From Candidatus Limicola stercorigallinarum (lineage in GTDB: Bacteria > Actinomycetota > Coriobacteriia > Coriobacteriales > Coriobacteriaceae), in the NCBI GenBank assembly GCA_018711625.1, contig DVID01000001.1, positions 4,610 to 68,609 on the forward strand: a stretch of 64,000 nucleotides of DNA, in the 5' to 3' direction. Below the pieces are notes generated by a model that made no database searches, was not told the origin of the DNA, and was given only the letters and a program-made list of their open reading frames with translations. A program made the position numbers and the translations under genes. Positions 4,163 to 56,362 of this stretch are shown here, one piece after another (the first letter of the stretch is position 1; every line of letters starts with the position of its first letter).

Positions 4163-5227
4163 CTACAAATCCCGCGGGCGCTCGGCAAGAAAGATCCAAT
4201 GCTCCTGTTCGCGCGCCGCCTGCGGCAGCATGCGACCCACCGCACGCGCAGGAACGCCTGCTACAATCAGGTTTGCCAGCAGCGCCTTTGCATCATCCTC
4301 ATCAACCGCCATCATAAGACCGCCCGAGGTCTGCGGGTCAAAGAGCACGTCTTGGAGCGCAAGCGCTGTATCGCCCGGTGCAACGTGCGGCGCAGCATAC
4401 TGCCGATTGCGGTACACCGCCGAAGGCAAAATTCCCAGCGAAGCAAGGTCGAGCACGTCAGGAAGCAGCTCAAACGCCTCGGGCCAAATCTGGGCAGCAA
4501 GACCGGCCCCTTCAACCATCTCGAGCACGTGGCCCAGCACGCCAAAGCCGGTAATGTCGGTACAGGCGTGAACATGATGATTTGCCATAACCTCGGCAGC
4601 GCCACGGTTGAGCGTGCAAAGCGCCTGCACGGCCGCACGCTCAAGCTCTGGCGCGGCGATGCCACCCTGCAGAGCCGTAGACGCAATGCCCAGCCCCAAT
4701 GGTTTGGTGTAGATAAGCACATCCCCCGCCATAGCGCCATCGTTGGTGAGTATACGCTCAGGATTGATGACGCCTGTCACCGCCATACCATACTTAGGTT
4801 CGGCGTCGTAGATAGAATGGCCGCCCGCAAGCGAAGCTCCTGCCTCTGTCACTTTGTCCAAGCCACCGCGGAGCATCGCCCGCACCGTTTCCGCCGGCAT
4901 ATCTTCAGGCACAGCCATCACGTTGAGCGCCGTTATGGGTCGCGCACCCATGGCATACAGATCGGAAAGCGCGTTGGCCGCCGCCACCTGGCCAAACACA
5001 TAGGGATCGTCCACCATAGGCGGGAAGAAGTCCACCGTCTGCACGATGGCAAGCTCGTCGGCAAGCTTATAGACCGCCGCATCATCGGCATGGTCAAACC
5101 CCACAAGGAGATTAGGGTCGCGCGGCGCAGCAAACCCGTCAAAGAGCTGAGCCAGCATGCCAGCGCCCACTTTGGCCCCACAACCTGCACAGCTGGCAAG
5201 CTTGGTTAGCTTAACATTCTGCTCCAT
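4163..5227 (-). CDS. selD: Selenide, water dikinase (selenophosphate synthetase), Cys form
   Basis: LTKLASCAGCGAK, DDAAVY, QTVDFF, ANALSDLYAMG, TDITGFG, DPQTSGGL. Confidence 0.95.
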   Translation of the reverse strand: MEQNVKLTKLASCAGCGAKVGAGMLAQLFDGFAAPRDPNLLVGFDHADDAAVYKLADELAIVQTVDFFPPMVDDPYVFGQVAAANALSDLYAMGARPITALNVMAVPEDMPAETVRAMLRGGLDKVTEAGASLAGGHSIYDAEPKYGMAVTGVINPERILTNDGAMAGDVLIYTKPLGLGIASTALQGGIAAPELERAAVQALCTLNRGAAEVMANHHVHACTDITGFGVLGHVLEMVEGAGLAAQIWPEAFELLPDVLDLASLGILPSAVYRNRQYAAPHVAPGDTALALQDVLFDPQTSGGLMMAVDEDDAKALLANLIVAGVPARAVGRMLPQAAREQEHWIFLAERPRDL

Positions 5228-51014: not shown

Positions 51015-51220
51015 CTATTGCCGAGATTCGCGCCAGCCTTACCTCTACGGCCTCTCGGTCTTGTTGGTATGCCGAACTCGCCGCGTTGGTGTGGACTTTG
51101 TCAAAAACAGCGGTCCGTTTGGAGAGAAAACGGGCTTTTGGCATACCAAAGAGCGAAGTGAGCCATACCGCAGCTGAATCTGCGGACAAGACGGCGTGCA
51201 CAACGAGCCCTCAAGTAGCG

Positions 51221-51415
51221 TCATGATCCCCAAACGAGCAGCATCCCGATCAAAAACACCGCCACAGCAAGGCACATGAGCGCACATCCGCAACTGCAGC
51301 CGCCCGAATCGTCACTCGTGCCGCCGCCTCCGCCGCGACTACGTCGCATGGCTTCAACGGCAACCTGCCCCTCGATGGGGCCCACGTGGCCGTCGTTGTT
51401 AATATCAGGAACCAT
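51221..51415 (-). CDS. Small hypothetical membrane protein (64 aa, CSCGC motif before the TM helix)
   Basis: ORF with a Gly/Ser linker and a C-terminal hydrophobic helix; weak RBS. Confidence 0.45.
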   Translation of the reverse strand: MVPDINNDGHVGPIEGQVAVEAMRRSRGGGGGTSDDSGGCSCGCALMCLAVAVFLIGMLLVWGS

Positions 51416-51612
51416 AGAACCCGCCTAGGTGGTAGCTGCAGAGCAGCAACGAGGAGTCGAGGCGCCCGTTACCGCCCGCACATCGGCCAGGGCCTCGGGT
51501 AACGCGCCACGGAGCGTTGGCATCCCCTGATTCTACACGAGATGCACATTTGCCAACATACGAACAGCGTGCCGCCGGCATCGCCCAATCACGCCTGTGA
51601 CATGATAGCGCT

Positions 51613-51800
51613 AGGCCCAATGACGAGCTGTCGCTAAAAGAAATCAAGCGGCTTTTCGCTGACACCTACCGGAGGATGACGCCTTCGAGATGACAGAGGA
51701 GTCGGTGGAAAGACCTTCCTCCTTCTAAGAAGAAGCGTTGGTGGACGCGATCTTCATGAATGTGTATCGCGTGCTTGAGGAGGCGAGCAACATCATAGTT
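51613..51800 (+). pseudogene. Degraded fragment resembling the N-terminus of a HepT/DUF86 HEPN ribonuclease toxin
   Basis: Reads RPNDELSLKEIKRLFADTYRR / frameshift / DDAFEMTEESVERPSSF* EEALVDAIFMNVYRVLEEASNI; the last segment resembles the DUF86 DAxxxNxxxxxEAxxxI helix. No R-x4-H segment follows. Confidence 0.35.
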
Positions 51801-51863
51801 GACGTTTGGCGCCCGCAATTGCTTCTCACCGGGCGCCGATAGCTGCGTGGGCACGCAAAGAAA

Positions 51864-51901
51864 CGCCTCCCTTGGCCGAGACGCATCGGCCAAGGGAGGC
51901 G
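51864..51901 (-). terminator. Terminator after the SLH protein gene
   Basis: 16-bp stem cgcctcccttggccga / tcggccaagggaggcg followed by TTTCTTT on the minus strand. Confidence 0.8.
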
Positions 51902-51942
51902 AAATAATCACCGGTGCCATCACGCGGGGCCCCGCGCGGGGG

Positions 51943-54534
51943 TCACGCCATGCGCATGAGCACGGTGGCGAGCTGGGCGCGGGAGAGCACGCCGCCCGGG
52001 GCGAGGGTGCCGCCGCCGAGGCCGGAGAGGACGCCCTCTCCCACGGCCCACTCGAGGGCGGGCACGGCGTAGGAGGAGGCGTCGTCCCCGTCGGGGTACC
52101 CGGAGAGGTCGCCCGAGCCCCCGGGCTCGCCGGCGGCGCGCCAGAGGATGGTGGCGAGCTGCTCGCGGGTCACGGGGTCCTCGGGGCCGAAGTTGGCGCC
52201 GTCGCCGTAGCCCTCGACGATCCCCTGCTCGGCCGCCCACGCCACGGCCTCGGCGTAGAAGGCCCCCGGGTCGCAGTCGGCGAAGCTGGGGCCGCCCTCG
52301 GCCTCGGGCTCGCCCGCCTGGCGCCAGAGCACCGTGGCGAGCTGGGCGCGGGAGAGGGCGCCCTCCGTGCCGAACGCGCCGGAGCCGTCCCCGTAGCCCG
52401 CCATGAGGCCCGAGAGCCACGCCCACCGCACGGCCTCGGAGTACCACTCGCCCTCGATGGCGTCCGGGAAGGGCAGGGCGTGGCTGCGGGAGTCGAGCGC
52501 CACGAGCCACTCCGAGGCGTGGTCGATCGGCAGGCGCGCCGCGCCCCCGCCGTCGACCCGCGCGGACGCCTCGTACCCCAGCGACCCGGCCTCCTCGTCG
52601 TAGCGGTAGAGGTTGGCGACGAGCCCCGCGGCGTCCTTTCCTAGCGGCGCCACGAGCGTGAGCTCGAAGCCGAAGGGGCCGTCGTGCCCGAGCGACACCT
52701 GCACGGAGCCGGACTCGCCGGTGACGAGGTTCACCACGTCCGCGGGGATGGCGTCGCCGCCGAGCGAGGCGCCCAGGTCGGTGTCGCCGTGCCCCGCGCC
52801 CTCGGGCACGTCCCCGCCGTAGATCTCCCAGGAGACGCCGCCGCCCATGTCGAGCGCGAGCGTCACGTCGCGGCCGGCGAGCTCGTCCAGCACCTCGCCG
52901 GGCAGCACGGTCTTGCCGTCCATGTCCACCGTGACCGTGGACCCGGGCTCGGCGCCCACGATGTCGTCCGCCACGTCGCCCCAGTCGGGCCCGGTCGGGC
53001 GCGGCGGAATATAGACACCCGTGACGGTCACCAGACAGGTTGCCGTCATGCCACCATCCGCAGTGGTGACGACAATAGTGGCAGTGCCGGGCGACACGGC
53101 GGTCACGTTGCCGCTGCTGTCCACCGTGGCAACGGACGAGTTATCGCTCGTCCACGTCACGTTCTTGTTGGTGGCGTTGGCGGGAGCCACCGTAGCCGTG
53201 AGGGCGAGGGTGTTGGGGGTACCGTTGTAGTACAGGTGCGCCTGAGTCTGGCTGAGGGTCACTCCGGTGACAGAAACCGTCGCAGCAGTCACGGTGACGG
53301 TGCAGACGGCTTTTTCTTCGCTGCCGTCCGCAACGGTGACGGTGATGGTAGCTGTGCCCGCGCTCACGGCGATCACTTTGCCGCTTGTGTCTACCGTGGC
53401 GACACCGGGGGCGCTGCTTTCCCAGGTCACGGATTTTTCGGTGGCGTTGTCCGGCGTTATAGTGGAGATAAGGGTTTCTTCGTCGCCCACATCAAGGGTC
53501 AAGCTGGTCTTGTTCAGCTCAACTTTGGTGACTTTGTAAATCACGCTGTCGCCCAAACTTTCCGCAAGGCTCTCGCCCAGCGTGCCGCCATCCACGATTA
53601 CCTTGTGGCCATTGGCGTCCAGACTTGCTCCATCGCCCGGCGTCAGGCTCTCGTCCTCGCCGATGGTCAAATTCTCCTGCAAGGTCGCATCGCCGTACAC
53701 GGTGCCGGTGCCGTTATCAAAGACGATACCAACACTGTCATCAGCAGGGGAAACTTTCTTGAGATCTTGTAGCAATCCGGCACCGATCCCACCCCCTCTT
53801 GCGTCCACGATGGCACTGTTGCTGATGGTTAAGGTCGTAGTATTAGGAACGGTACCACTGCCGCTAGAATCATATAGAATCCCTGGAGACCCGCTGGCAG
53901 TCAGGCTGCCGCCATCCACAGTCAGAGCGGCGGTCGAACTATTGCTGGATTGCACATTGACACCATAACTGGTCCCCGTTGCTTCAACCTTGGCGTTCTG
54001 GATAAACAAAGCGGCATCGCCGTTGTTGCTCTGAACCCAGATTCCTGGATTACTAGAGCCGCTGGCATCCAGACTGCCGCCGCTTTCGCTTGTGATGGTC
54101 AGGGTGGCTTCGCCAGTAGAACTGGCCAACACATAGATCCCCTTGCCGACCTCTGCGATTGTATTGGTGCCCTCCAATGTGATGGTCAACTCCGCAGCGC
54201 CGTTCTGATTGTGCACGCCAATGGCAGCGCCAGCGACATAAGTGCTGGTATTTAAGGGTACTTCCTCTTTAATCGTGGCGTTGTGCAAGGTCAGGGTATT
54301 ATTCGCTACGTCATAATGGATATAGTTGTCCGTCGGTGTGTCTCCGCTTGTGTATGCGGTGACATTTCCATCACTGTCCGTTGTCCAGTAGCCGGTAGAA
54401 GAGATTTTTACACCGCCGACATAAATCACCTGGTAATCCGGCGCAGCCGCCAGCGCCGTGGCGGGGAGCATCGTCAGGAACATCATCATCGTCGCCAGAA
54501 GCGCGCCGACCTTCCACCACGTTCTTCTCGCCAT
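51943..54534 (-). CDS. Secreted S-layer-homology (SLH) anchored surface protein: signal peptide, beta-rich passenger, two Big_2 Ig-like domains, linker domain, three SLH repeats
   Basis: Signal MARRTWWK...ALA; two VTxVxL...VTWxSS...VATVD.SG.V.AVS.GTATI repeats; three repeats of type WYSEAVRWA...G...SRAQLATVL. Confidence 0.88.
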   Translation of the reverse strand: MARRTWWKVGALLATMMMFLTMLPATALAAAPDYQVIYVGGVKISSTGYWTTDSDGNVTAYTSGDTPTDNYIHYDVANNTLTLHNATIKEEVPLNTSTYVAGAAIGVHNQNGAAELTITLEGTNTIAEVGKGIYVLASSTGEATLTITSESGGSLDASGSSNPGIWVQSNNGDAALFIQNAKVEATGTSYGVNVQSSNSSTAALTVDGGSLTASGSPGILYDSSGSGTVPNTTTLTISNSAIVDARGGGIGAGLLQDLKKVSPADDSVGIVFDNGTGTVYGDATLQENLTIGEDESLTPGDGASLDANGHKVIVDGGTLGESLAESLGDSVIYKVTKVELNKTSLTLDVGDEETLISTITPDNATEKSVTWESSAPGVATVDTSGKVIAVSAGTATITVTVADGSEEKAVCTVTVTAATVSVTGVTLSQTQAHLYYNGTPNTLALTATVAPANATNKNVTWTSDNSSVATVDSSGNVTAVSPGTATIVVTTADGGMTATCLVTVTGVYIPPRPTGPDWGDVADDIVGAEPGSTVTVDMDGKTVLPGEVLDELAGRDVTLALDMGGGVSWEIYGGDVPEGAGHGDTDLGASLGGDAIPADVVNLVTGESGSVQVSLGHDGPFGFELTLVAPLGKDAAGLVANLYRYDEEAGSLGYEASARVDGGGAARLPIDHASEWLVALDSRSHALPFPDAIEGEWYSEAVRWAWLSGLMAGYGDGSGAFGTEGALSRAQLATVLWRQAGEPEAEGGPSFADCDPGAFYAEAVAWAAEQGIVEGYGDGANFGPEDPVTREQLATILWRAAGEPGGSGDLSGYPDGDDASSYAVPALEWAVGEGVLSGLGGGTLAPGGVLSRAQLATVLMRMA

Positions 54535-54660
54535 ACGACACCGTCCCTTCCGCCTGCGCCGCAATGCGGGCGCGAAACGCAGCTTGACCTCCCCATTGTT
54601 GTTTAGGAGCTGAGGAGGGCCTCTACCCGGCGAGACGGTGGGTTTGGGGAGGGTCGCGCC

Positions 54661-55880
54661 CTACGAGAGCAGAAAGCGGCCGAGCTCCTTGCGGCTGCTC
54701 ACGCCGAGCTTCTTCAGGGACTTGGAGATGCACTCCTTCACGCGGTTGACCGAGATGCCCATGTGCGCCGCGATCTCGGCGTTGCTCCACCCGCGCGCCG
54801 CGAGCATGCAGGTCGCGAACTCGGTGGTGGTGAGGTTGTCGGCCACGTCGTCGCCGGTGGCGGGGTTGTGAACGCGGCGCCATCCGGCGGAGAAGCGGTA
54901 GGTGATGTCGATGATGCGGCGGAAGTCGTCGGGCCAGGCGGGCTTGATCGCCGCCTCGAGCATGCCGCCGAGGAGGCCGTGGTGCTCGGCCAGCGGCTCG
55001 ATCAGGCCGTCGGGGCGGGCGAGGTCCCAGGCCGCCAGCAGGTGCTCGCGCGCCTCGTCCGCGCGGCGCCGCGCCATGAGGTCCATGACGGCGACGAGGT
55101 GCAGGTAGATGGCGGGGATGGGATAGGAGTCCTCCTGCATGGCGAAGGCGCCCAGCACCAGGCCCAGGCTCGTCTGGTGCTCGCCCTCCAGATAGAGGCG
55201 GTGCGCCTGCACGTAGCAGGCGAAGAGCCTCAGGCCCGGCGGCAGGAGGGGCAGCGCCTCGCCCGCGGGCGGCAGGCCCTCGGGCTCGGGGATGTGCAGA
55301 AGCACGCTCGCCGTGCGCGCCACGAACGACGCCGCGGCGGCCGCCTCAGGGGAGGACCCCCCCCGATGGGCTTCTCGATGCCGGCGCGGGCGCGCGCGAG
55401 GGCGGAGCGGGCGTCGTTGATGCGGTCGAGGGCGAGGCTCGCGTACGCGCAGATGAGGCAGGCCGAGAGGCGCGCTCCTGCGTCCTCGCTCGCAAGGAGC
55501 GGACGCGCGAGGGCGGCCGCCCGCGCGGCGTCGCCGGTGAAGTAGGCGAGCTCGGCCAGCGCCACGTCGCGGCGCGGGCCCTCGGGGAGCGACTCCGCGT
55601 ACTCGCGGGCATGGCCGGGGGCAAAGGGCGCGTTCATGAGGGGCATGAGGGTGTCGCACGACCCCTGCCGGCGCCGGGGGACCGGGGGCCTCTCGTCCCC
55701 GGGGGCCGCCTCGTTGCGGGAGCGCCGCAGGTCGGCGGGCTTGACGGCGCCCTCCGGCACGCGCCAGACGCGGCCCACGCGCTCGGCTCCCGGGACGCGA
55801 CCATGAGCGCACATGAGCTGCACGGCGCGCGGCGTCACGTGCCAGCGGCGCGCCGCCTCCGCGGCAGAGATGAACTCCAT
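54661..55880 (-). pseudogene. HTH (excisionase-like N-terminus) + C-terminal LuxR HTH regulator, frameshifted in a G8 tract (plus-strand C8 at 55357-55364)
   Basis: Frame A: MEFISAAEAARRWHVTPRAVQLMC...IEKPIGG; frame B continues SSPEAAAAASFV...LTTTEFATCMLAARGWSNAEIAAHMGISVNRVK. G9 or G6 joins them (G9 gives 406 aa). Confidence 0.85.
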
Positions 55881-55994
55881 GTGGCACCCCCATTCACATA
55901 CATCGATAGCTTACCAGAGCCGCACCGGGGCATTCCTTCGCTCGTGCGAAGACTTGGACAGGGATTTTGGGAAGTTTTTTGCGCTGGACGGCGG

Positions 55995-56221
55995 CAGGCG
56001 GCGCGGAGGTCGCAGATTACTACGGGCTCGACCTCTCGTCCGTGACCCGCGCGTTCTACAAGCAGATGGTCAACACTCGGCGCATCCCGCTCACGTTCGC
56101 CCCGGAGGAGCCCAACGAGGAGAGCCTCGCCGCAATCGCTGAGGGGGACGCCTTTCTTGCGTCCGGCCAGAGCGGACGATTTGCGAACGGTCACGACCTG
56201 ATAGAGGCGGCGACGGCCTGA
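55995..56221 (+). pseudogene. RelB/DinJ-like antitoxin lacking its N-terminus
   Basis: AEVADYYGLDLSSVTRAFYKQMVNTRRIPLTF...EPNEESLAAIAE; no convincing start or RBS, and the DNA-binding strand is missing. Confidence 0.65.
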
Positions 56222-56262
56222 TGGCCAGGCTCGCCGCCGACTTCTCGTCTGCCTTGAAGCCG
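56221..56262 (+). pseudogene. First ~13 codons of a putative RelE/YafQ-like toxin, then truncated
   Basis: TGATG coupling to the antitoxin stop; MARLAADFSSALK followed by unrelated lower-GC sequence. Confidence 0.4.
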
Positions 56263-56294
56263 CCCTCTTCCTGGAATTGCGGCCCCCTTTGCAT

Positions 56295-56362
56295 AGTTGC
56301 GGCTCCTATATGTCAATCACAGCCGAAAATCGGCGTTTGGATGACATATAGGAGCCGCAACT
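56295..56362. repeat. 21-bp perfect inverted repeat forming a 68-nt hairpin
   Basis: agttgcggctcctatatgtca (56295-56315) / tgacatataggagccgcaact (56342-56362); inner gccga/tcggc stem. Confidence 0.9.

Follow-up and report, generated by a model that had tools for sequence, protein, structure and literature searches.

How does a single reading frame come to hold a passenger of one base composition between a signal peptide and an anchor of another, and where did each part come from? The question is raised by a gene at 51943-54534 of a 64,000-nucleotide stretch of DNA, here called the window (positions 4,610 to 68,609 of contig DVID01000001.1, assembly GCA_018711625.1), from Candidatus Limicola stercorigallinarum, a member of the Coriobacteriaceae. 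The product is a putative surface protein, with a signal peptide and passenger at one end and three SLH domains at the other, and a regulator gene lies beside it. An earlier note on this DNA had proposed that domains are shuffled across phyla, interchangeable passengers being swapped into a fixed chassis of signal peptide, SLH anchor and regulator. Our analysis makes it probable that two horizontal events are nested here: acquisition of an island of Atopobiaceae type carrying regulator and gene, then exchange with Clostridia of a β-helix cassette drawn from a pool that crosses phyla.

Passenger cassette and junctions

Is the passenger shared with another phylum? The DNA at approximately 53570-54478 is 95.0-97.6% identical over 825-910 nucleotides to genes at four loci, L108 to L111, hereafter Evtepia-type genes. 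Exact runs reach 519 nucleotides (L109 and L110; 53947-54465), 460 (L108) and 290 (L111). Over the passenger the sister strain L030 is 89% identical, its longest exact run being 190 nucleotides. Beyond the cassette, identity to L108-L111 drops to 35-65% within tens of nucleotides on both flanks, and the signal peptide, Big_2 region, anchor and neighbours of the Evtepia-type genes are all different from those of the gene studied. The nearest passenger proteins in a collection of 5.8 billion proteins also occur in other gene contexts and with other downstream domains. The proposal that an interchangeable passenger is shuffled across phyla is therefore borne out by a cassette near-identical to Clostridia genes between flanks that are not.

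The host can be assigned for two of these loci. A dnaE gene 2.2 kb upstream of the L111 gene encodes a DnaE 99% identical to that of a metagenome-assembled genome (MAG) of Candidatus Evtepia excrementipullorum, G138, and 37-46% identical to DnaE across 116 Coriobacteriales genomes (40% in the genome studied). The 4.9-kb downstream flank of L110 is 98% identical to G138. Evtepia belongs to the Bacillota, class Clostridia. In G138 itself the cassette is represented by 116 nucleotides only, where a contig begins, so the assignment rests on L110 and L111, tied to G138 by DnaE and by the 4.9-kb flank. The proteins P0127 (L110) and P0149 (L111) occur on 24 and 13 contigs, respectively. Flanking DNA of L109 gives weak paralogue matches in four Clostridia genomes (three Oscillospiraceae and Evtepia) and nearly none in the genome studied. 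At the Evtepia-type loci a small open reading frame (ORF) of 103 or 56 amino acids, for which Pfam gave no match, ends overlapping the surface-gene start codon (L110:4693-5004, L111:4693-5004, L108:4829-4999).

Shared homology at the junctions, a feature raised in the earlier note, was found as two blocks conserved at the DNA level. The 5′ block is common to the Coriobacteriia alleles and the Evtepia genes; through the signal peptide the sequence follows the Coriobacteriia alleles, and from the LPATALA codons onward it follows the Evtepia genes. The 3′ block hardly differs among alleles or phyla, and the columns of highest conservation in alignments A1 and A2 fall in it. Past it the sequence follows L030, L034 and L108, and L111 diverges. 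Both blocks have the highest amino-acid conservation across 70 sequences, and among sequences carrying the consensus residue codon identity is 0.67 in the 5′ block and 0.71-0.76 in the 3′ block, as opposed to about 0.54 elsewhere. The two blocks are the likely upstream and downstream crossover sites.

An island shared with Atopobiaceae

The regulator and the surface gene together align, over 51947-56267, with Thermophilibacter mediterraneus (L034) at 87.7% nucleotide identity. With Olsenella sp. An293 (L039) the values are 82.4% (52010-56000) and 96.3% (56002-56267), and both alignments end at 56267 and at the stop codon. T. mediterraneus and An293 are both Atopobiaceae. Housekeeping DNA of An293 is 69-75% identical to this genome, and the PyrG protein is 75% identical to that of An293, 92% to that of the same-genus Collinsella sp. 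An2 and 87% to that of C. tanakaei. The C-terminal half of the regulator, however, is 98% identical in amino acid sequence to An293, as against 74% to C. tanakaei and same-genus copies, so the relationship runs against the species tree. A same-genus genome also holds regulator fragments of 92-94% identity at contig ends.

The composition of the island departs from that of the host: the guanine-plus-cytosine (GC) content of third codon positions (GC3) is 0.93-0.99, compared with a host median of 0.68 and 0.83 in pyrG. Native genes of An293, taken from pyrG and clearly coding ORFs, have GC3 values of 0.91-0.95, a match that would explain the GC-rich chassis. An Atopobiaceae-type origin of the island is suggested. 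The GC-rich chassis of the earlier note is thus present, but it appears to be itself a 4.3-kb island acquired horizontally from high-GC Atopobiaceae. A perfect inverted repeat (56295-56362) in the divergent promoter region, a short way beyond the left island edge, could be an operator, a terminator or the end of a mobile element.

Composition of the gene

The GC values that the earlier note had counted by hand are exact (0.767 for 52021-52080, 0.433 for 53821-53880 and 0.450 for 54241-54300), and the sharp switch that it placed near 53005 lies at 53007, where GC3 steps from 0.72 to 0.992 at codon 510, inside the VYIPPRPTGPDW linker at 52981-53016. Counting from that codon, G or C is the third letter of 351 of the 354 codons left before the stop. 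Upstream of the switch GC3 is 0.70-0.88 in the Big_2 pair and 0.50-0.60 in the β-helix, and it rises again, as had been noted, to 0.75-0.82 in the signal peptide. The regulator has values of 0.935 and 0.974 in its two frames. Anchor and regulator are indeed GC-richer than the host, for which genome GC is 0.603 and whole-ORF GC3 has a median of 0.68 and a 99th percentile of 0.84; this survey of longest ORFs is crude, since shadow ORFs in GC-rich DNA contaminate it. The values at this locus go well beyond what chance would produce in this genome. Among 1386 long ORFs, 14 have any 100-codon window with GC3 of at least 0.95, and such a window is combined with a stretch near 0.4-0.5 only in the gene studied and in one other SLH gene. 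There are 47 stretches in the genome with GC of at least 0.72 (300-nucleotide window), and the two longest are in this locus, in the SLH half and the regulator. The description of the passenger as low in GC needs qualification. It lies below its flanks, but at 0.543 its GC is just mildly under that of the host, and the true outliers are the parts saturated in GC3.

The GC3 mosaic is repeated in every allele and in distant homologues of other genera, and is therefore no accident of one gene; homologues of uniform composition were not found. A single recent transfer into the gene studied alone is ruled out, as the mosaic is common to all alleles and homologues. Paralogue or biased gene conversion among the approximately 14 SLH genes of the genome was rejected as the cause of the high GC3, the other SLH triplets having values of 0.60-0.86 and at best 60% amino acid identity.

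The other mosaic SLH gene (C23:47240-50242, L018) has about 650 codons at GC3 0.42-0.58 followed by 0.84-0.96. The high part covers Pectate_lyase_5-like, Flg_new_2 and SLH regions, and the gene runs off the contig end. Two further GC3-rich stretches (0.9-1.0) at C38:24451-26610 and C3:39563-41722 hold an rve integrase, a metallo-β-lactamase-fold protein and a Prim-Pol/VapE primase, and are probably further imports from GC-richer donors.

Alleles at the locus

Do the parts of the gene share one history? Related assemblies have the order AAA_14/DUF4143, regulator, gene, pyrG, xerD, the exceptions being L033, a short contig with the gene alone, and T. mediterraneus L034, where the neighbours are different. 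Across these alleles nucleotide identity to the gene studied is 93-99% for regulator and signal peptide, 85-94% for the pre-SLH domain and about 89% or, in a second type, about 65% for the SLH region; in the passenger it is patchy, at 50-98%. Passengers of same-locus alleles share 38-82% of their amino acids. The expectation that passengers vary while flanks are conserved, as in a diversifying surface-display locus, agrees with these values.

The two modules disagree on relationships. Protein P0019 is 82% identical to the gene product in the helix and 63% in SLH, and P0010 is 38% identical in the helix and 87% in SLH. In approximately unbiased (AU) tests, with groups picked after these identities had been seen, neither data set accepts the grouping of the other: p = 6e-47 for the helix grouping under the SLH data and p = 6e-5 for the SLH grouping under the helix data. 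A single phylogeny for the two modules is rejected, in agreement with the shuffling proposed earlier.

The idea of a fixed chassis stands in part. The regulator and signal peptide are conserved, but the SLH region comes in two types approximately 37% apart in amino acid sequence (87-96% or 62-65% identical to the gene studied) and many passenger relatives lack SLH domains altogether. Nor does the regulator belong to the chassis in other genera, where it goes with the passenger family and not with the SLH module: it accompanies the passenger in other Coriobacteriaceae genera and at some Clostridia loci, and is absent beside proteins that share the SLH module alone.

Silent donor copies were sought in the genome by tblastn with the passenger and the mid domain, which found the gene itself alone. 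An intragenomic cassette system of the pilE/pilS or vlsE type was therefore rejected. Beside the island a 390-residue DUF2207_C gene lies between the SLH gene and pyrG in the same-species L031 (7246-8418) and L032 (7807-8979); it is missing from the window (51045-51940) and from L030, an indel polymorphism.

A pool shared by three phyla

Is Evtepia the only partner? A locus survey with one genome per species gave 72 passenger loci in three phyla, mostly from chicken gut. The hosts are Coriobacteriia, Clostridia (Oscillospiraceae, Lachnospiraceae, Butyricicoccaceae and Peptococcaceae), Erysipelotrichaceae and Bacteroidota (Parabacteroides, isolates included). A passenger tree of 70 rows has 16 changes of phylum label compared with a mean of 16.8 after shuffling, so passengers do not cluster by phylum. 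The passengers of C. tanakaei An791 and Lachnoclostridium sp. An131 are 87% identical in amino acid sequence; these are cultured isolates, and mis-binning therefore cannot explain everything.

Passenger GC is 0.532±0.030 at 58 loci in the three phyla, over which flank GC ranges from 0.355 to 0.713 (slope 0.06, r 0.17). The cassette is thus poor in GC where the host is GC-rich and rich in GC where the host is AT-rich, and it looks GC-poor here because the pool has a GC of its own, about 0.53, in any host. Continual exchange without amelioration would produce such a pattern. The passenger had been described as clostridial in type; it is near-identical in Clostridia, but the pool is common to three phyla and has a constant GC of its own.

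Two observations concern individual entries. L037 is labelled 'uncultured Eggerthella sp. UMGS1142', and the GC of its locus, 0.48, is far from that usual for Eggerthella, making the bin label doubtful. Passenger homologues in two Clostridia MAGs (L072:3001-3849 and L082:3001-3912) contain an in-frame stop and may be pseudogenes or reflect sequencing errors.

Fold of the passenger

The AlphaFold model of the passenger (about 300 residues), built on a 46-sequence alignment, is a right-handed β-helix with a predicted local distance difference test score (pLDDT) of 96.4. It is a three-sheet solenoid, almost entirely strand, with a single short C-terminal helix. Foldseek against the PDB gave no match at E ≤ 0.001. 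Exhaustive comparison with VIA-align gave Z scores of 14.1 to Cthe_2159 of C. thermocellum (PDB code 4phb), which is polysaccharide-lyase-like, 11.2 to the binding region of the Limosilactobacillus reuteri serine-rich repeat protein (SRRP; 5nxk) and 10.0 to UpaB (6bea), followed by tailspikes and pectate lyases. There were 25 chains at Z ≥ 8, and those listed are mostly β-helices with a few left-handed β-helix acyltransferases. Cthe_2159, the L. reuteri SRRP and UpaB each have a right-handed parallel β-helix on the cell surface, as proposed for the passenger. Unlike them, the passenger falls in no Pfam or NCBIfam family (no Pfam match at E ≤ 1, and NCBIfam matches the SLH part alone), and its sequence identity is 14-18%. 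The modelled fold suggests a head resembling those of adhesins or polysaccharide-binding proteins.

A profile search for the passenger family matches 2627 clusters (50% identity), with E ≤ 1e-30 for 302. In most of the 2627 the domain is directly behind a signal peptide.

Gene architecture and neighbouring features

The features of the locus are collected in Table 1. The ATG was taken as the start codon because close homologues all begin MARRTWW; an alternative TTG at 54564 would lengthen the protein by 10 residues. The putative signal peptide, read by eye, has a basic n-region, a hydrophobic core and the ALA|AAP site, and by per-module identities is 90-97% conserved among Coriobacteriia alleles. 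The Big_2 match has an E value of 5e-30. This region differs between alleles, some having I-set or He_PIG inserts instead.

Table 1. Coordinates of features at the surface-protein locus (positions in the window)
Feature	Position	Strand	Basis
Surface-protein gene, 863 aa: signal peptide, β-helix passenger, two Big_2, β-sandwich, three SLH	51943..54534	-	ORF/translation, Pfam
Putative Sec-type signal peptide, aa 1-30, ends ALA|AAP	54445..54534	-	sequence inspection, per-module identities
Exchangeable β-helix passenger cassette, GC about 0.54	53641..54468	-	nucleotide identity to L108-L111, AlphaFold model
5′ junction block, 57 nt, LPATALAAAPDYQVIYVGG	54412..54468	-	junction alignment
3′ junction block, 66 nt, encodes GTVYGDATLQENLTIGEDESLT	53641..53706	-	junction alignment
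Two Big_2 Ig-like domains, GC3 0.70-0.88	53017..53529	-	Pfam
Pre-SLH β-sandwich domain, aa 519-700	52465..53010	-	model, per-module identities
Three SLH domains (putative cell-wall anchor), GC3 0.995	51946..52464	-	Pfam
Perfect 16-nt hairpin, 42 nt past stop codon	51864..51901	-	inverted-repeat search
Regulator: HTH_17, TPR-like middle, LuxR/GerE HTH; frameshifted here at G8	54664..55880	-	
Two-gene island (regulator and SLH gene), common to Atopobiaceae	51947..56267		nucleotide alignment to L034, L039
Perfect 21-nt inverted repeat, 26-nt loop, 28 nt outside island left edge	56295..56362		inverted-repeat search

The pre-SLH domain (about 180 residues) is 79-92% conserved among alleles by per-module identities and has no Pfam family. 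It models as a β-sandwich (pLDDT 89.9), for which Foldseek found no significant PDB match at E ≤ 0.001. In the 120 proteins listed, of 1555 matches to a query of mid domain plus SLH, the same domain immediately precedes the SLH triplet, and the N-terminal parts of those listed vary, SGNH lipases, LRR and Flg_new_2 being among them. SLH (PF00395) matches three stretches, with E 4.4e-25 and 87.8 bits against a cut-off of 20.8. The SLH proteins of Bacillota (Bacillus anthracis Sap and EA1, Paenibacillus, Clostridia) likewise have three tandem SLH domains at one end, whereas here the host is one of the Coriobacteriia and an extra conserved β-sandwich, that of the 120 listed proteins, precedes the triplet. 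In the literature searched, two papers mention SLH together with the Coriobacteriia, and neither has a title on SLH proteins of that class. The genome encodes a CsaB-type pyruvyl transferase (PF04230, 87.5 bits, over the cut-off; C37:2666-3481), which fits SLH anchoring, although the family is broad and the match supportive only; this gene adjoins another SLH gene. The hairpin past the stop codon is a likely terminator.

The regulator, intact at 405-423 residues in relatives, is split here between two frames by a frameshift in a G8 run (a run of C at 55357-55364 on the plus strand). The position of the tract is conserved across genera: it is G6 in L031, L032 and L017, G9 in L034 and L011, and G8 here and in L016, in both cases out of frame; L012 has no tract. 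Contigs of three chicken-gut sequencing runs are all G8, though contigs drop minority variants. Such a pattern is typical of slipped-strand phase variation. With a poly-G tract at a fixed site, varied in length and out of frame at G8, expression is probably phase-variable. Judged from the tract, the regulator would then probably gate expression of the surface gene, its LuxR half being untranslated in this assembly.

Assessment of the proposed history

What sequence of events would account for these observations, and would anything simpler do? In the history that we favour, the regulator-plus-gene unit (51947-56267), native in type to high-GC Atopobiaceae, would have moved into a Coriobacteriaceae genome of 60% GC, and this origin would have left the GC3 of 0.93-1.0 in the regulator, pre-SLH domain and SLH anchor. 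A cassette of about 830 nucleotides would then have been exchanged recently with Clostridia (hosts besides Candidatus Evtepia excrementipullorum included). The swap would probably have followed uptake of foreign DNA and proceeded by homologous recombination at the two blocks, one in the signal-peptide c-region and the other, GTVYG..TLQE..IGE.ESL, where the helix ends. This cassette would belong to a pool circulating in Actinomycetota, Bacillota and Bacteroidota of mainly chicken gut. The protein would be Sec-exported, held on the wall by SLH binding to a wall polymer and display the β-helix head outward, and selection on the exposed surface may drive turnover of heads.

Because the genome is a MAG of 49 contigs, an artefact deserves attention. 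The assembler could have crossed into a co-resident Evtepia gene at the blocks of 57-66 nucleotides and back again. Blocks of this length could mislead a de Bruijn graph, the Logan unitigs come to an end at the 3′ one, and run X3 has an elevated summed depth across the cassette. Of 53400-54700, 93-95% is present in three chicken-gut runs from a single study (X1-X3); many other chicken-gut runs hold about 40% of the sampled words, which is about the share of the cassette in the 1301-nucleotide query. At the 5′ side, however, a 604-nucleotide k=31 Logan contig from run X2 spans 54310-54913 with zero mismatches. Cassette, Coriobacteriia signal peptide and regulator are continuous in it, and its depth agrees with that of the flanks (24-26 and 26-28). 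The same-species L030 and the Atopobiaceae L034 alleles also carry passengers of the same clade, 79-82% identical in amino acid sequence to Evtepia, and passengers 87% identical occur in isolates from different phyla, so the phenomenon is independent of this contig. We regard a chimera as improbable, and it would leave the family-wide result untouched.

Descent without transfer fares worse still. An old Coriobacteriia gene might have been shaped by biased gene conversion or codon selection in its conserved parts, with AT-biased mutation in a fast-evolving head; the GC3 gradient does recur in each homologue and in several genera, GC3 tracks conservation (regulator, then mid domain, then passenger), and the anchor GC3 of 0.99 is above that of other alleles. 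As sole explanation it is contradicted by an exact match of 519 nucleotides to a clostridial genome of which the DnaE is 40% identical, by a regulator 98% identical to another family and 74% within its own, by a passenger GC that ignores host GC over 0.36-0.71, and by passenger trees scrambled by phylum. We give it very little credence. The same low weight falls on movement of the complete gene between phyla followed by uneven divergence, with no exchange of a cassette. Regulator and passenger co-occur at several Clostridia loci, with 64-68% amino acid identity in the regulator C-terminal half, and two-gene units therefore do move. Yet on either side of the cassette a few tens of nucleotides suffice for identity to the Evtepia genes to go from 97-100% down to 35-65%, the signal peptide, Big_2, anchor and neighbours all differ from those of the Evtepia genes, and the helix and SLH data each reject the grouping of the other.

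Returning to the two nested transfers, a number of points count against them. The 3′ junction is bridged by no independent contig, the Logan unitigs breaking at 53643-53672 (a k=31 branch node), so an assembler path switch on that side is formally possible. Neither an integrase nor att sites or direct repeats were found at 51947 or 56267, where the neighbours are AAA_14/DUF4143 and pyrG/xerD. The passenger has no carrier among the phages, plasmids and viral contigs of INPHARED, PLSDB and IMG/VR. Among L108-L111 the host assignment covers L110 and L111 only, and many of the cross-phylum partners are MAG bins that may be mis-binned, a concern that isolates and DnaE-linked contigs answer for some pairs only. 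The direction of either transfer would be read from composition only, just as a function for the head would be read from its fold. The anchor GC3 of 0.99, slightly above the 0.93-0.97 of other alleles, leaves room for an extra GC-raising force.

A broader picture can be drawn, somewhat speculatively. The junction blocks, more than conserved protein motifs, could be maintained recombination anchors of a plug-and-play system across phyla, in which gut bacteria of at least three phyla graft heads from the pool to secretion signals and wall anchors of their own, continual exchange keeps the pool composition and, in Coriobacteriia, a phase-variable regulator switches the heads. On balance we would not expect all of this to hold.

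Relation to known systems

Mosaic surface genes, S-layer cassette switching, gene flow between phyla in the gut and sub-genic tet mosaics are already known. The ribosomal-protection genes of tet(O/W/32) type are sub-genic recombinants that circulate across phyla among gut anaerobes; unrelated hosts carry segments that are nearly the same in sequence. Both PMC12904643 and PMC7693602 touch on this topic. The cassette resembles them in being a sub-genic segment near-identical in hosts of different phyla. It differs in that the tet mosaics are cytoplasmic, drug-selected and on known mobile elements, whereas here a surface-protein domain is bounded by two junction blocks and no vector was found in the three databases searched. 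The slpA switching of Clostridioides difficile, sap of Campylobacter fetus and PspA/PspC of pneumococci all pair a conserved end, for secretion and anchoring, with an exposed part that is hypervariable, and in each of them homologous recombination exchanges alleles at a fixed chromosomal locus. The alleles at the AAA_14 - regulator - gene - pyrG locus similarly combine conserved ends with a variable head, but in those systems exchange is within a species or genus or from silent copies, and here there is a single copy and the partner is in another phylum.

Recombination is expected to fall steeply with sequence divergence, and near-identical DNA shared between phyla is regarded as rare and documented mostly for whole resistance genes on mobile elements. 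A β-lactamase gene is reported to circulate between phyla, and that report describes such events as rare (PMC10989005). The present case is like it in the near-identical DNA across phyla and unlike it in that a gene fragment is shared here and a whole gene there. Literature searches found no description of the passenger family or of its exchange. What appears new is that an uncharacterised head domain is swapped as a fragment across phyla at near-identity, that the exchange is bounded by blocks conserved in their DNA, and that it is nested inside an island shared between families.

For work with MAGs there is a caution, as such cassettes sit where assemblies and bins break. If the proposed history is correct, the passenger family would provide a handle on surface ligands and on the selection behind their turnover, be it host antibody, phage or a shared glycan. 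The locus would then be a testable case of a community-level pool of gene fragments shaping the cell surfaces of gut commensals.

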